A stretch of DNA of 64,000 nt from Escherichia coli (GTDB taxonomy: Bacteria; Pseudomonadota; Gammaproteobacteria; Enterobacterales; Enterobacteriaceae), in NCBI RefSeq assembly GCF_045037415.1, contig NZ_CP173438.1; one strand, given 5' to 3'. Of the stretch, positions 9,971 to 31,710 are shown piece after piece. The stretch's first letter is position 1. The number at the start of each line of letters is the position of its first letter. A program made the translations under genes and the position numbers. A model generated the notes under the pieces. That model made no database searches. It saw only the letters and a program-made list of their open reading frames with translations, and was not told the origin of the DNA.

Positions 9971-10642
9971 TTAGCCTCTGATGATTTTAAGCGCCCATGC
10001 GCCACTCATAATGACCAGCAGCACCAGACACATACCAAAAGCCAGCATACAAGCCTGAGCCATATTCATAAAATGCCATGGTGGTAGCAGATACCAGCCT
10101 TCAGATTGCTGATACATTTCCACAAACCACTGTTGCGTGCTGCTCAGTGTGACGCCATCAGGAACGATTGGTGCGTCATAGCCACAATCCCCGGTAGGCT
10201 TGAACCAATTTGGTGCCCACTGTGCCAGCGGCAGGTTAAAGGGAAAAGTGGGATCGGTAGAGCAACCCTGTACGCCAAACAGTGAATCGGGATCCGGATT
10301 ATGTACTGCATGGTGGATATCGTTCAGTTTGAGCGAAAACTTCAGTCCCAAAATGCTGCCGTAAAATGCCATCACGCAGCCAATTAGCTTGAGGATGATG
10401 TTCTTTGGATTGATCGCTGCAACCAATCCTCCAATCACCATCACAAACATGGCGTAGCGAATGTATACACATTGCTCACAGGGTGCCATGTAGAGATAGA
10501 TCTGGAAGAAAGAGTGCGCCAGGATAATTAACGTGCCCATCGCAACGGCCATTAACAACCACAACAAGCGTTGCTCCTGCCATCTGACCAGTGTGTCAAC
10601 TGGTGATGTGCGAAGATCTTTCCACATTCCCTTAATACCCAT
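9971..10642 (-). CDS. dsbI: DsbB-like membrane disulfide oxidoreductase DsbI, 223 aa
   Basis: Polytopic membrane protein with a CEQC pair in the first periplasmic loop and a large C-terminal domain; partner of dsbL and assT. Confidence 0.8.
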
Positions 10643-10656
10643 AGCCTGTTTCCCTG

Positions 10657-11325
10657 TTATTTGCTTGCTAACTCACGGATAAGGTCTGCCATCGCGTCGA
10701 TGGATTTGATGCTCTTGGTGTAGATCAAGTACTTACCATTAACGACATAGGCTGGAACCCCCTGGATTTTGGCGACATCATAAGAGGCTTTCCATTTTTC
10801 CAGTGTTTCTTGAACTGCTGGTTCTTTCAGTGCCGCTTCAAAATCCGCCTGACTCATACCTGCGGCATCCAGACCAGTTTTGATAAAGGCAGCGGGATCT
10901 TTACCGTCAGACCAGCGTTCTTTTTTGTCGTGATAAGCCGCGTAGTAGGCAAACTTGGCTTTCTTAAACTGAGAGTTAGCATCAAATAAGGAAATGCCTG
11001 CTGCTTTATCTTTATTGATCAAGACCGCAAAGACTTCGCTTGCTTGTTTGCCGTATTCACCTTTGGTTTCCAGATGGAACGGCGTGAAAGCAACGATATC
11101 TTTCACTTTTTCCGATACCGGACCGGTAACCGCTTTGTCGTACTTGTAACAGAACGGGCAGGCGTAGCTAAATACCTTAATCAGCGTTTTGTCGGCATTC
11201 GGAATAGGTTTTTCCAGAACCATGTAATCCGTGCCTTCGGTAAATGCAGAAGCGGTAAATGAAACAGCCAAAGCTGCGGTAAGCAGTATGGTTTTAAATA
11301 GTGATGAGATCCCTAATTTCGACAT
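10657..11325 (-). CDS. dsbL: Periplasmic thiol:disulfide oxidoreductase DsbL (DsbA paralogue), 222 aa
   Basis: Signal peptide plus thioredoxin-fold active site CPFC (..[14 protein letters not shown]..). Confidence 0.85.
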
Positions 11326-11342
11326 TTTTATTCCCTTCTTAA

Positions 11343-13139
11343 TTATTTGAACATCTGTTGTGGACGGACTAACAGTGCACGATAGTGAGTCTGATTGGGT
11401 TTATCTGACAGCACGTCGATTTCCACTTTCACTTCTTTGGTTTTGTAATCGATTTCGTTCAACTTACCGATGGTTGGCTGCCCGACATCGAACAAATGAA
11501 TAGAACCACCGAAGCCAAACATGGTGTTACGGTCGGCTTGATATTCAATGATGGAGGTAATCGGGCTATAGAAATCGTAGCCACGTTCTTTACCGTATTC
11601 CCACACTTGCTGAACGGTGCCTTTCTTCTCATCAATCTTATATTCCACAAAGCGGGAGTATTTCATGGTTGGTAAGGCAGGTTGTTCCAGATGACGCCCA
11701 TCGCCATTATCAAAAATGGTGAGCGTTCCTTTGCTGGAAATCCAGGCGGTATGCTGGGTGTAGGTAAAGTCGAAGTCTGAGTTTTCGCACAGGCCATTTT
11801 CGTTACAGGTAATTGGCTTACCGTTAGCATCAACCGGTTTCAGCAGCTTGCTGGCCAGCGGTTTTTCCCAACCTTTAGAGGGCGCAAGGATCCATTTCAC
11901 TTGCTTATCACGACCAATCTTCACAACACCCTGGTGGCGAGAGGAGAGGATGATAGAGTCATCTTTTGCGTCATAGGCGATAGAGTTCACGTGCGCCCAG
12001 TTGCGGCCTGGCCCTACACCCAGCGCGTCGCCGAACGGTGTATCTGGTTCCAGTTTTGCCTGTTGTCCTGCATGGGCAAGGTCAACGTTAACGCAAACTG
12101 CACCTGCATCCAGCGCGCCGAGCAGTGCATCGCGTTTCGGATCGAGGATCTTGGTCAGATCCCATACATCGACAACGCGACCAGATTTATCGACTTCGAG
12201 GATATGGTCACGAATGGTGGTGACGTGTACGCCGTCATCGCGACGATAGTTACTCTTACCTACGCGCAACAGTACCGTGCCATTTGGCGTCTCAATGGAC
12301 TCATGAGTGGCGTCAGCAAATCCGCGCGGTAGTTTGTGATCTTCGAGCACCTGCCCCATCATGTCGAACTCGTACCAGTGCTGACCTTGTACAGCGGTAA
12401 AGGTGCCGCGTGGCGTTTCACGGATACCCATCAGATAACCACGTTTGTTAATGTTGCGGTCACGACCATCGTAGAAGGTGTTTTGATCCAACCACCAGCG
12501 GTATTCGCCTTCCGTATCGACGATAAAGGTGAATGGCGCGATATCAAAAGGGAGTGCGCCAGTTGCCGGACCCGCATCAAGGATACCGGCATTTTTATCT
12601 TTCTCACCATGCCAGTGGAGATCGGAACCTTGGGCGGTAAAGGTGTGGGTATTAACCAGATAGAGGCGATCTTCAAAACCTGGCGCGACTTTAACGACTT
12701 TGGTTTGCTGTAGGTCGGAGATGGAGCGGTTATCCATGTAATTGTTGACGATGGCGGAAGTCTGCACCACGTAATCATCTTTCATGGCCTTACCGTTTTC
12801 TTTCCACTCAACGGTCACTTTGTTCGCAAACTTCTGGTAAAGACCAAAAATCGGTACACCATCGTAAGTTTTCAGTGACTCGTTGCCCACTTTATAGCTG
12901 ATGTCAACGCCTTTTTCGCCCTTCCCGTGGACGGTAACTTTGACGTCAGAAATAACATGGCTGTCTAAATCAACCAGCGCGGTTAAGGGCGCATTACCGT
13001 AGGGATCGACGATAATCGCCCCAAGCTGCCCGGCAGGCGGTGCTGGTTTAAAACCCGCAGCCATCACCCCCGATGCTGACAAACCCAGGGTTATCGCCAC
13101 AGTTCCGGCTACGAGTGTTTTTCTATATTTATCAAACAT
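11343..13139 (-). CDS. assT: Periplasmic arylsulfate sulfotransferase AssT, 598 aa
   Basis: 598-aa secreted protein (signal peptide MFDKYRKTLVAGTVAITLGLSASGVMA) with beta-propeller-like composition; operon partner of dsbL/dsbI as described for uropathogenic E. coli. Confidence 0.8.
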   Translation of the reverse strand: MFDKYRKTLVAGTVAITLGLSASGVMAAGFKPAPPAGQLGAIIVDPYGNAPLTALVDLDSHVISDVKVTVHGKGEKGVDISYKVGNESLKTYDGVPIFGLYQKFANKVTVEWKENGKAMKDDYVVQTSAIVNNYMDNRSISDLQQTKVVKVAPGFEDRLYLVNTHTFTAQGSDLHWHGEKDKNAGILDAGPATGALPFDIAPFTFIVDTEGEYRWWLDQNTFYDGRDRNINKRGYLMGIRETPRGTFTAVQGQHWYEFDMMGQVLEDHKLPRGFADATHESIETPNGTVLLRVGKSNYRRDDGVHVTTIRDHILEVDKSGRVVDVWDLTKILDPKRDALLGALDAGAVCVNVDLAHAGQQAKLEPDTPFGDALGVGPGRNWAHVNSIAYDAKDDSIILSSRHQGVVKIGRDKQVKWILAPSKGWEKPLASKLLKPVDANGKPITCNENGLCENSDFDFTYTQHTAWISSKGTLTIFDNGDGRHLEQPALPTMKYSRFVEYKIDEKKGTVQQVWEYGKERGYDFYSPITSIIEYQADRNTMFGFGGSIHLFDVGQPTIGKLNEIDYKTKEVKVEIDVLSDKPNQTHYRALLVRPQQMFK

Positions 13140-13589
13140 GGATATATCTCCTTATATAACGCAAATATATAATAATGATGAATATCGACTGTTGAGAGGG
13201 TGCTAATAAATTCGTTACGTGAATATAAATATTAATTCAATAAAGAGTGAGAATGTTTTTGTGTTTCTTTTAAATATGTTGTTATTCGGTGAAACAAATA
13301 TTTATGTTTAATGGATAGTAGGGGGGCAATATATCAATCACAATGTTCAATACTGTGTAGTGTGATCCCTGCAACATTGTTTTTTAATTATTAAATTTAA
13401 ATCTGGTGAGATAAAAGTAAAGTATTTAAATAATATCAAATAGTTATGTTGTGATGTATTCACTTACTTTAATTACAATATCGCTTGCATATGACGATTT
13501 AACATTAAATTGAGTATTAATGTTAAATAAAGGTTGGATATGTATGTGTTTATATATTGATGGGAATTATGAATGGTGGATTATAAGAG

Positions 13590-13612
13590 ATTGCCCCGCT
13601 TATCGGGGCAAT
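13590..13612 (-). terminator. Terminator-like hairpin downstream of ygiC (ATTGCCCCG-CTTAT-CGGGGCAAT)
   Basis: 9-bp GC-rich inverted repeat immediately 3' of the ygiC stop on the minus strand. Confidence 0.45.
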
Positions 13613-13623
13613 ATTAAGCTGTA

Positions 13624-14784
13624 TTACTCAACAAAAATATGTGGATAAAACCGAGACATATCCTGGGTGATCAATGCACGGTCTTCACGAATGCCAATTC
13701 CGGCAGGTTGATCGTTCACCAGCCAGCTACCAATCAGCATATAGCTGTCGCCGAATTTCGGTAACGGGTGGAATTGCTGAACAATCATCCCTTCTTCGCC
13801 ATACGGACCTTCCGCTGCTTCAATGGTTTTGCCGTTCTCAATGATCGACACGTTTGCGCCTTCACGGGAGAAGATCGGTTTAACCACATATTTTTCCATT
13901 TGCGGATGATCATCTTCCGCAAAATAAGCGGGCAGCAGGTTCGGGTGATTCGGGAACATCTCCCACAGTAGCGGTAGAAGCGCTTTGTTGGAGATAATGC
14001 TCTTCCACGCCGGTTCCAGCCAGCGTACGCCTGCATCCTCCAGCTTGGTGGAGAACATCTCACGCAACATAAATTCCCACGGATACAGCTTGAACAGGTT
14101 GGAAATCACCTGATCCTGTAAATCCGTGAACTGACCTTTTTCACCTAACCCGATATCGTCAATGTAGAGGAACTCGGTGGCGATTTCAGCTTCCGTTGCG
14201 CAGTCCTGCAAATACTGAATGGTTCCGCGATCTTCCACCGTGTCGCGACAGCAGGTGAGATGCAGCAACTGGAAGCCATACTGTTCACGCAGCTCAACGA
14301 AGCGATCGATCAGCTTTTCTTGCAGACTGTTAAACTGGTCGCTGCCCTCCGGCAAGTTACCGGCGTTAAGCTGATCTTCCAGCCAGATCCACTGAAAGAA
14401 CGCCGCCTCGTATAGTGACGTTGGCGTATCGGCGTTATTTTCCAGAAGTTTAGGTTCGCCAGTGCCATCCCACGCCAGATCAAGACGCGAATAAAGCGAT
14501 GGCTGGTGCGTCAGCCATGACTGGCGCACAAAACTCCAGGTGTGTTTTGGTATGCGGAATTTGGTCATCAGCTCATCGCTGGCGATCACTTTTTCCACCA
14601 CTTTCAGGCACATCTGGTGCAGTTCGGCGGTGACTTCTTCCAGCTTTTCAACCTGAGAGAGGGTCAACTTGTAGTAAGCATCTTCACACCAGTACGGCTC
14701 GCCGTACATGGTGTGAAAATTGAAACCGTATTCGTGGGCTTTTTCGCGCCAGTCCGGGCGCTCGGTAATACTGACTCTTTCCAT
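13624..14784 (-). CDS. ygiC: Glutathionylspermidine-synthase-like ATP-grasp protein YgiC, 386 aa
   Basis: 386-aa product [38 protein letters not shown]... recognised as YgiC; adjacent to ygiB and tolC. Confidence 0.9.
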
Positions 14785-14789
14785 CGGTA

Positions 14790-15461
14790 TCAGCCACCCA
14801 TTGAACGAGAAGAGGTGCCGGTTGCGCTACGCTGCATAGTGCTTTGTTTGGCAACAGATTCACCAAAACCGCCACGGGTAACAGTAGTAGTGGTCGCCGG
14901 TTTTGGTGCCATTGCCGTCTTCGGTACGGTCATGGTGCGGCCTGGCTGGGCTGCGCCATAGTTTTTACCGGTCGCGTCGGTATATTTACCGTAAGCCGGG
15001 CTGGCCGGGTTTTTCGAGGAGAACAGCGGCTGCTGTGCAAATCCCGCGCCGCCGCCCATCAGACGTCCCATCATGTAACCGGCCATCAGCGGCATCCAGA
15101 AACTCCCGCTGGATTGCTGGGCCTGCGCCTGGTTTTCTGGTGCCATGCCAGCCTGGGCTGGTGCCTGCTGGCACTGACCTTCACCAAATTCAGCAACACA
15201 GTCTTCACGGGTGGCGTATTTCGGCGCAGTACGTTCGGCTTCTTTCAGCGCATTGTTGTACGCGGTGGTACATTCGGCGCTTTTGCCTGGGTTTGCAGCT
15301 GAACAGTCGTCAGCATTTTGATAGAGAGACACTGTTTCATCACTCTTTTCACAGCCCGCCAGCATAAAAACAGTGGCAACCGCGAGAGCGACTGGTGTCA
15401 GATGGCGTGCGCTCCAGTTTTTGCGGAACGATGCGTGGCGTATGGATTTTGTCCGTTTCAT
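14790..15461 (-). CDS. ygiB: DUF1190 lipoprotein YgiB, 223 aa
   Basis: ORF 14790..15494; start at [16 protein letters not shown]... with lipobox-like LAGC; Gly/Met/Ala/Gln-rich C-terminus typical of YgiB. Confidence 0.85.
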
Positions 15462-30178: not shown

Positions 30179-30658
30179 ATGTCAAATATGATATACTTAT
30201 CAATTAAAGGGAAAATACAAGGTTTGATCTCTGAGGGTTGTGGTTCGTATGCATCTATTGGTAATAAATATCAAATAAATCATGTGGATGAAATTTTTGT
30301 TTTACAGTTCGACCATTCTTTAAGTCGAGAGTATAATGTAGTGCATCACCCCATAAAATTTTACAAGCCAATAGATAAATCCTCCCCTTTATTAAATGCC
30401 GCTCTTTCTGAAAATGAAGAGTTATCAGCTGTATTTAATTTTTATAGAATTAATTCTGGCGGTTGTATTGAAAGGTTTTACACAATTGAATTGCAAGGAG
30501 CACATTTATCGAATATTCTGACATGTTATCCACACTCAATTACACATGCGGGTAATCAGCCGGAAGAGGTCATTGTTCTTAATTATAAAAATATAACATG
30601 GAAGCACCATATCGCGAGTACGGAATCATATAGTTGTTGGGAAGAAAGGATTTTTTAA
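30179..30658 (+). CDS. hcp: Orphan Hcp-family protein (type VI secretion tube/cargo-carrier family), 159 aa
   Basis: Product MSNMIYLSIKGKIQG...HHPIKFYKPIDKSSPLLNAAL...FNFYRINSGG...VIVLNYKNITWKHH... follows the conserved Hcp pattern; AT-rich; no other T6SS core genes in the window. Confidence 0.75.
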   Translation: MSNMIYLSIKGKIQGLISEGCGSYASIGNKYQINHVDEIFVLQFDHSLSREYNVVHHPIKFYKPIDKSSPLLNAALSENEELSAVFNFYRINSGGCIERFYTIELQGAHLSNILTCYPHSITHAGNQPEEVIVLNYKNITWKHHIASTESYSCWEERIF

Positions 30659-30660
30659 AT

Positions 30661-31371
30661 ATGAAAAGCGATCTCACTATAAAAAATAGATATTGTACAA
30701 TTCCACAAGCGAAGTTCCGTAAATGGGATGAAATGGACGTTTTACTCTGGAAGTTAGGAAAAAATGATTCGCGTCGCCGTTCAGGAGTATATTATTTAAA
30801 TGCTTATAAAGATGCATATGTACAATATAATAGAGACAAAATAATTAAATATGCATACGCCGCTGGAATTCGTCCAGAGTTACTGGGCGGCGTGGCCTGG
30901 ATTGAGTCAGGAGGTATGCCTGAAAATTATAAGTTTCAGATATATGAAACAAAAAGAATGATCGGATTGTTAGATATGCCTGAAAATAAAACATCATTTG
31001 GCTCAATGGGTATACAAATACGAACCGCAGCGATTACTCTAGGTCTAGACCCTTCAGAATTAACTACCAGAAATCAGTTAGAGTTAGCGACATGCCTAAT
31101 GGAGGATGATTTTACCTTTCAAATTGCTGCTACTTATTTAAGAGATCTTGTTCTTTTTGATTATCCCTCTTCGGCAACACTGTATATGACGAATGAGCAG
31201 TATATTATGGCTGGTATTAGATATAATCGTGGTGTTGAACGAGATTTGGGTTTTTTTATTTGTTTAATTAATAATTTGCCTGCACGTGATACAGATGATT
31301 ATAAATTCATCTCTTATGGTATGAGGTTGTTAGAGATTAGAGAACATATCAAAAAATTGATTAATGAGTAA
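30661..31371 (+). CDS. Putative Hcp-associated effector with lytic-transglycosylase (SLT / lysozyme-like) motifs, 236 aa, no signal peptide
   Basis: ATG preceded by AAGGA, 2 nt after the hcp stop. Ordered motifs: E82-S83 (WIESGG), G117-I-Q-I120 with TAA (SMGIQIRTAA), A157-T-Y-L160 (QIAATYLRDL), Y188-N-R-G191 (GIRYNRG). AT-rich. Confidence 0.6.
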   Translation: MKSDLTIKNRYCTIPQAKFRKWDEMDVLLWKLGKNDSRRRSGVYYLNAYKDAYVQYNRDKIIKYAYAAGIRPELLGGVAWIESGGMPENYKFQIYETKRMIGLLDMPENKTSFGSMGIQIRTAAITLGLDPSELTTRNQLELATCLMEDDFTFQIAATYLRDLVLFDYPSSATLYMTNEQYIMAGIRYNRGVERDLGFFICLINNLPARDTDDYKFISYGMRLLEIREHIKKLINE

Positions 31372-31377
31372 TCAGAT

Positions 31378-31710
31378 ATGTTAAAAAAACAACTACTATC
31401 AATATTTGAAGCACTATTATATATAATGCTTACTTATTGGTTAATAGATTCTTTTTTTGCTTTCAATAAGTATGACTGGATGCTTGAGTCGGGAGACAAT
31501 ATTTGCAGTATACCTTCTGTTTCAGGCGAAGATCGTATATTACAAGCAATGATTGCAGCATTTTTTCTTCTGACACCACTTATTATTCTTATCTTAAGAA
31601 AACTCTTTATGCGGGAAATGTTCGAGTTTTGGCTATATGTATTCTCGCTCGTTATTTGTCTGGGTTGTGGTTGGTGGCTTTTTTGGGGACGGTTTATATT
31701 TTGCTATTAG
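31378..31710 (+). CDS. ygiZ: Small polytopic inner-membrane protein YgiZ, 110 aa; candidate cognate immunity protein
   Basis: Starts 6 nt after the effector stop on the same strand; three predicted TM helices; matches YgiZ in size and in position next to qseC. Confidence 0.7.
   Translation: MLKKQLLSIFEALLYIMLTYWLIDSFFAFNKYDWMLESGDNICSIPSVSGEDRILQAMIAAFFLLTPLIILILRKLFMREMFEFWLYVFSLVICLGCGWWLFWGRFIFCY

Follow-up and report, generated by a model that had tools for sequence, protein, structure and literature searches.

The aryl-sulfate sulfotransferase AssT of the uropathogenic Escherichia coli (UPEC) strain CFT073 is exported to the periplasm, where it takes the sulfuryl group of a phenolic sulfate and passes it to a phenolic acceptor (PMC13426309, PMC7810732, PMC6067686), in a ping-pong reaction that proceeds via a sulfo-histidine intermediate at His436 (PMC13426309). 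AssT requires one disulfide bond, Cys418–Cys424, which is made by DsbL, itself re-oxidized by DsbI (PMC13426309, PMC7810732, PMC6067686); the housekeeping pair DsbA/DsbB is able to fold AssT too (PMC7810732). The three CFT073 genes, assT-dsbL-dsbI, are those of Grimshaw et al. 2008 (cited in PMC6067686). In Salmonella Typhi, assT-dsbL-dsbI is repressed by H-NS and activated by LeuO in a manner that depends on growth conditions (reviewed in PMC4264507), and assT of UPEC is reported to be silent in standard culture (PMC7810732). Here we analyse a stretch of 64,000 nucleotides from E. coli (assembly GCF_045037415.1, contig NZ_CP173438.1; the window), in which the same three genes lie between ygiD and ygiC. 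The operon, its enzymology, the protein structures and the absence from K-12 are already known, and H-NS/LeuO control has been published for Salmonella. The explanation that joins these elements, and that we hold to be very probable, is that the window carries the known operon with its published enzymology behind a silenced leader, and that this operon is an old resident lost in K-12-like E. coli.

The minus strand of positions 9971–13139 holds three closely spaced open reading frames (ORFs) with intergenic gaps of 17 and 14 nt: assT (11343–13139, 598 amino acids), dsbL (10657–11325, 222 amino acids, with the motif YACPFCY) and dsbI (9971–10642, 223 amino acids, with APCEQCV). Downstream of dsbI, a terminator scan identified an intrinsic terminator on the same strand (9933–9961), a perfect 12-bp stem followed by UCUUUUAUU, with a fold energy of −23.5 kcal/mol (z = −7.3). 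It sits inside the 45-bp spacer between dsbI and ygiD (9926–9970) and is kept in other Escherichia loci. The short gaps together with this strong terminator argue for an operon layout. On the upstream side, the 484 bp that separate the assT ATG from the ygiC stop codon (13140–13623, minus strand) form the leader and control region of assT. Beyond it lies ygiC (13624–14784, minus strand), and at the other end ygiD runs in the opposite orientation to the operon on the plus strand, ending at 9925. The mechanical ORF of ygiD starts at 9110; the RefSeq start on identical loci is 27 nt downstream, at 9137. An earlier sequence-only reading of this DNA had described a three-gene minus-strand operon between ygiD and ygiC behind an AT-rich, non-coding leader. 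Its coordinates and motifs are exact as given, identification of the flanking genes bears out the position, and the leader has 27.7% G+C against 48.8% for the whole window. The locus is the known assT-dsbL-dsbI operon, real and correctly identified.

Domain and structure matches uphold the three gene identities. AssT matches Pfam PF05935 (Arylsulfotrans, 1.2e-135) and, at its N terminus, the immunoglobulin-like domain PF17425 (3.7e-29), and aligns with PDB 3elq at 1320 bits across residues 28–598. Its architecture is that of a periplasmic aryl-sulfate sulfotransferase independent of 3′-phosphoadenosine 5′-phosphosulfate, with an N-terminal immunoglobulin-like domain and a six-bladed β-propeller. 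The key residues listed in PMC13426309 are all there in mature-protein numbering: the catalytic His436 and the sulfuryl-binding His252, His356, Asn358, Arg374 and Thr501. Both disulfide cysteines, Cys418 and Cys424, are likewise in place. As 588 of the 598 residues are those of the characterized CFT073 enzyme, we infer that it, too, transfers sulfuryl groups from phenolic donors to phenolic acceptors. DsbL matches Pfam DSBA (PF01323), carries CPFC at C56/C59 and a signal peptide, and is encoded next to assT; it falls far short of the NCBIfam cut-off for a DsbA equivalog (78 bits versus 279) and matches PDB 3c7m at 2.4e-127 across residues 28–222. Signal peptide cleavage is consistent with the solved 3c7m chain, which begins at residue 28. 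DsbI matches Pfam DsbB (3.4e-23) and exceeds the NCBIfam DsbI equivalog cut-off (417 bits versus 212), with CEQC at C55/C58, a second cysteine pair at C127/C153 and hydrophobic membrane segments. Re-inspection thus found both of the CxxC sites that had been described. By these features DsbL is a predicted periplasmic, DsbA-like dithiol oxidase and DsbI a predicted DsbB-like, quinone-linked oxidase of the inner membrane that would re-oxidize DsbL. Near-identity to the CFT073 proteins and the presence of all published catalytic residues indicate that the mechanism here is the published one.

We determined how the cluster is placed in related genera by scanning species-representative genomes for AssT and then locating the flanking proteins with tblastn. 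The order in Escherichia is tolC-ygiB-ygiC, leader-assT-dsbL-dsbI, ygiD (reverse), zupT, yqiD, ribB, and the same ygiC/ygiD site is occupied in E. coli, E. albertii, E. whittamii, Escherichia sp. MOD1 and the divergent lineage L003. Salmonella, Citrobacter and Intestinirhabdus instead have ygiC, ygiD, zupT, yqiD, an intergenic region of ~400 bp, assT-dsbL-dsbI and ribB; the Salmonella/Citrobacter cluster lies ~2 kb from the Escherichia site, after zupT-yqiD. In Pseudocitrobacter the cluster is at the Escherichia site, with a yqiD-like gene as the immediate upstream neighbour of assT. The more distantly related Budvicia, Leminorella, Limnobaculum and Edwardsiella have the three genes, and these flanking genes are not nearby. 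One further genome, Citrobacter sp. On2M, has a degenerate cluster (locus positions 3168–4775) with a fragmented assT, no tblastn match for dsbL and a dsbI reduced to a C-terminal fragment, which is best read as independent decay.

The operon has diverged as its neighbours have. Between E. albertii and E. coli, dsbI, dsbL and assT are ~85–86% identical and the flanks 81–92%, and the other Escherichia species likewise differ from E. coli to a similar degree in operon and flanking genes. The G+C content at third codon positions is 0.47–0.55 in the operon genes and 0.55–0.60 in the flanks, which makes the operon near-native and not foreign to its host. The occupied segment contains the three genes and the leader only, with edges exactly at the ygiC and ygiD stop codons; neither direct nor inverted repeats flank it and none of its ORFs encodes an integrase or transposase, although tRNA genes were not scanned for. 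We conclude from these comparisons that the cluster is to be read as an old, vertically inherited resident of the tolC–ribB neighbourhood. Because it occupies the same site in other Escherichia, lies nearby in Salmonella and Citrobacter and shows no mobility signatures, K-12-like lineages most probably lost the operon.

Two considerations weigh against loss. The direction of the presence/absence change rests on parsimony, and the sequence that fills the K-12 junction shares nothing with the occupied allele; since the filler is unrelated, the empty allele is not a simple deletion scar and the exact loss event is unrecoverable. The reverse direction would make the operon a recently acquired islet, placed between ygiD and ygiC in lineages of extraintestinal pathogenic E. 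coli (ExPEC). An islet could account for the presence of the operon in only 1508 of 5426 complete E. coli genomes, for the AT-rich leader and slightly lower G+C of the genes (45–50%, versus 51–56% in the flanks), and for a K-12 junction with a terminator hairpin of its own. It does not account for four other Escherichia lineages that have the operon in this very place and in which it has diverged about as far as the flanks, for the cluster in the same neighbourhood of Salmonella and Citrobacter, or for the lack of repeats and integrase-like ORFs. Moreover, empty and occupied haplotypes have ordinary flanks in common, with no fixed differences in ygiD. A recent islet is therefore highly improbable, and the term inserted, used in the sequence-only reading, is probably wrong for this locus. 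Loss from K-12-like lineages is the reading we retain.

The K-12 junction itself is short. Without the operon, the ygiC and ygiD stop codons are 37 bp apart, against 3698 bp in the window, and the 37-bp filler consists of a hairpin with nothing in common with those 3698 bp; the claimed absence from K-12 is correct. This hairpin loosely resembles the REP-type (repetitive extragenic palindromic) hairpins at the ygiC–ygiD junction of Salmonella and Citrobacter. A multicopy REP element was considered as the source of the filler and rejected, the filler being single copy in each genome. It recurs, with a few substitutions, in each of the four empty genomes examined (K-12, ATCC 43894, FT130 and N96), and as one conserved filler is common to all four, the empty allele seems to be of single origin. 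The occupied haplotype has its own counterpart in a ygiC terminator hairpin (13590–13612, minus strand; −15.4 kcal/mol, z = −3.2), which is peculiar to operon-bearing genomes and in whose stem compensatory changes preserve pairing in E. albertii and Escherichia sp. MOD1.

K-12 and the occupied haplotype diverge by 7% in the last 150 bp of ygiD. A cluster of 12 substitutions in the last 187 bp of the gene (positions 603–786) is specific to the K-12 lineage and is probably a local recombination patch. An ancient two-haplotype polymorphism, with the empty allele on an old divergent haplotype, or an introgressed empty allele, was rejected since ATCC 43894, FT130 and N96 are without the K-12 ygiD patch and ygiD has no fixed differences between occupied and empty genomes.

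In all 1508 positive genomes the operon segment is full length and at this locus; among the matches listed there is one plasmid. The window is 100% identical to one E. coli strain of serotype O25:H4, which we take from the serotype to be ST131. The listed carriers include CFT073, UTI89, F11, ATCC 25922, two avian pathogenic O2:K1 strains, a strain of serotype O127:H6 and strain 042, and further carriers are isolates from wild animals and water. O127:H6 is the serotype of the enteropathogenic strain E2348/69, and 042 is an enteroaggregative strain of phylogroup D. On that reading, the operon follows lineage and not pathotype. The proposed association with ExPEC is accordingly one with lineage, the carriers including CFT073, UTI89 and the O25:H4 strain as well as the O127:H6 strain, 042 and the wild-animal and water isolates. 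Operon-negative genomes number 3917; the strains identified among them are K-12, 95-3192, ATCC 43894 and a few others. In E. coli AZ 186, otherwise 100% identical, an IS1 element splits assT (locus positions 3734–6307); the operon is therefore occasionally inactivated.

We next consider the leader. Its composition is unusual even here, as only 0.7% of 484-bp windows across the 64 kb have 29% G+C or less. An Rfam scan of positions 9000–15000 found no family, the sole hit being a chance match to a snoRNA (E = 0.73). ORFs within the leader are mechanical only, at most 42 amino acids long and without gene-like signs, and tblastn with YqiD found no coding remnant in any Escherichia leader. A structured 5′ untranslated region was considered and rejected, the putative region being nothing unusual (z = 0.03). 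Two classes of leader allele, ~76% identical, occur in E. coli: 1246 genomes are like the window and 262 like FDAARGOS_1291, the latter, minor class being closest to E. whittamii (88% identical). The leader thus diverges much faster than coding DNA (~76% versus 94–98% identity). The two-allele pattern, with one allele near E. whittamii, hints at lineage-specific rewiring or introgression of operon regulation.

Within this variable region a few blocks are conserved across genera. Leader positions 241–323 and 439–484 align with the Salmonella region at 72–85% identity, and the remainder is unaligned; conserved blocks lie ~180–240 bp upstream of the ATG. The promoter-proximal block (13140–13222, minus strand) is nearly invariant in alignments of Escherichia, Salmonella and Citrobacter and includes the ribosome-binding site AAGGAG (13153–13148), eight nt before the ATG. 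The most conserved intergenic stretch across genera is the leader core (13314–13381, minus strand), which reads AACAATGTTGCAGGGATCACACT...TTGTGA-17 nt-TACTAT from 13381 to 13314. It contains a candidate σ70 promoter on the minus strand, with TTGTGA (13343–13338), a 17-nt spacer and TACTAT (13320–13315) matching 8 of 12 consensus positions, which is below the scan threshold. By inference from these motifs, the core may comprise a weak σ70 promoter and an upstream CRP-like site, TGTTG-N6-TCACA (13376–13361).

These motifs would permit expression that depends mainly on CRP and cyclic AMP, which is compatible with H-NS silencing on top. In such an arrangement TGTTG-N6-TCACA would be a class I site ~60 bp upstream of the start served by TTGTGA-17-TACTAT. 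In the cross-genus alignments the central spacer varies, but the TCACA half-site and its AATG flank are conserved, as is their geometry relative to the conserved TACTAT. Set against this are a weak left half-site, a start site that is putative, and the frequency of such sequences: the CRP-like match in the leader is, on its own, not above chance, with 23 matches of equal quality observed in the window and 27 expected. Predominant control by CRP is unlikely.

The distal leader has a different connection. A repeat search found a perfect 12-bp inverted repeat, ATTTAACATTAA-N8-TTAATGTTAAAT (13497–13528), part of which, TATTTAACATTA (~13530–13519), is invariant in seven of seven Escherichia leaders. 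The repeat aligns to an element that immediately precedes yqiD in E. coli, Salmonella and Citrobacter, in alignments that are individually weak (z 0.5–2.7). Taken together with the Pseudocitrobacter arrangement, this yqiD-like palindrome suggests that the leader descends from a divergent yqiD–assT control region. A fuller version, that the leader is a relic of this region which moved with the operon and kept an activator site and promoter at 13314–13381 and a palindromic operator of the yqiD type at 13497–13528, in two deeply diverged alleles, is put forward only tentatively.

Silencing by H-NS-type proteins with counter-silencing is, by analogy with Salmonella, the most likely control in E. 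coli as well, given the 27.7% G+C of the leader and its partial Salmonella homology. The idea fits the review statement on H-NS and LeuO in S. Typhi, the homology between the promoter-proximal half of the leader and the corresponding DNA upstream of assT in Salmonella and Citrobacter, and the reported silence of the UPEC gene. Several results weigh against this account of the leader. Only about half of it aligns with Salmonella and the two E. coli alleles are only ~76% identical, from which it follows that most of the leader is poorly constrained. No promoter on the assT strand of the leader reaches the consensus-scan threshold. A scan for the H-NS high-affinity motif TCGATAAATT was uninformative, with two matches at two mismatches in or beside the leader. 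None of these genes is listed in the supplements to studies of H-NS in CFT073 (chromatin immunoprecipitation sequencing) and strain 042.

These features raise the alternative of a leader made up largely of decayed filler, left behind by a yqiD-like gene and its intergenic region, with a simple proximal promoter and no silencing. The similarity of the distal leader to the yqiD upstream element would be expected of such filler, as would the yqiD-like gene that Pseudocitrobacter retains at that position, the rapid divergence of the leader relative to coding DNA, the lack of H-NS motif enrichment and the unstructured putative untranslated region. H-NS binding, however, depends more on AT-richness than on a strict motif. 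Discrete blocks ~180–240 bp upstream of the ATG that are conserved across genera also speak against decay, and both the reported silence of assT in standard culture (PMC7810732) and the H-NS/LeuO control reported for the Salmonella homologue (PMC4264507) oppose a simple promoter. We consider decayed filler quite improbable and retain silencing as the preferred reading.

The operon would then work as follows. The three genes would be co-transcribed from the 484-bp AT-rich leader, with transcription predicted to end at the hairpin at 9933–9961. The leader, derived on this model from an older divergent yqiD–assT control region, would be kept silent by H-NS-type nucleoid proteins until an antagonist such as LeuO opens it, as in S. 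Typhi. AssT would then be exported, DsbL would introduce the Cys418–Cys424 disulfide and DsbI would re-oxidize DsbL. As for its history, the cluster would be an old resident of the tolC–ribB neighbourhood that K-12-like E. coli most likely lost.

Other features of the neighbourhood were noted. Between ribB and yqiD a four-gene chaperone–usher fimbrial operon lies on the minus strand (2438–7988 region), encoding an unassigned 349-amino-acid protein that is a possible adhesin (2438–3487), a PapD-like chaperone (3484–4233), an usher (4240–6777) and a fimbrial subunit (6847–7410). Upstream of it are ~580 bp at 26–30% G+C (7411–7988). The fimbrial operon is at the same place in CFT073; in K-12 and FDAARGOS_1291 ribB adjoins yqiD. 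The yqiD gene (7989–8159) has two alleles: WP_001296421.1, common to the window, CFT073 and strain 042, is only ~68% identical to the K-12 form, with differences mainly in the C-terminal half. A third very AT-rich stretch (30179–31710, with G+C of 32% or less around 30.0–31.3 kb) contains an orphan gene for Hcp (type VI secretion), a 245-amino-acid ORF without a Pfam match and a DUF2645 gene.

What the analysis adds is the vertical residence of the cluster in the tolC–ribB neighbourhood, with K-12 most likely the loser, and a few leader blocks conserved across genera, which are concrete targets for promoter mapping in UPEC. The locus is better worded as an operon retained here and lost in K-12-like lineages, and not as an ExPEC-specific insertion; beyond correct annotation the significance is small.

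Compared with the described systems, the locus is closest to that of CFT073, the UPEC reference, which carries the operon at the same ygiC/ygiD site with a leader that is 99.8% identical (NZ_CP051263.1, 3629202–3629685), and whose AssT and DsbL structures are solved (3ELQ and 3C7M, respectively). The proteins differ by 10 residues in AssT, none in DsbL and one in DsbI. In DNA, the adjacent leader, dsbL and dsbI are 99.3–99.8% identical between the window and CFT073 but assT is only 96.1% identical, a pattern suggestive of a patch of recombination within that gene. The S. Typhi cluster (Gallego-Hernandez et al. 2012, summarized in PMC4264507) has the same three genes in the same order. In Salmonella more generally, AssT is ~86% identical (S. 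enterica subsp. arizonae), the upstream region is AT-rich, and the core and ribosome-binding blocks are conserved, but the cluster lies after zupT-yqiD and before ribB instead of between ygiC and ygiD, and the leader aligns over only about half its length. The housekeeping DsbA/DsbB pair has the same folds (Pfam DSBA and DsbB) and the same thiol–disulfide relay chemistry; DsbL and DsbI differ from it in their active sites, CPFC and CEQC, and in being encoded alongside their dedicated substrate.

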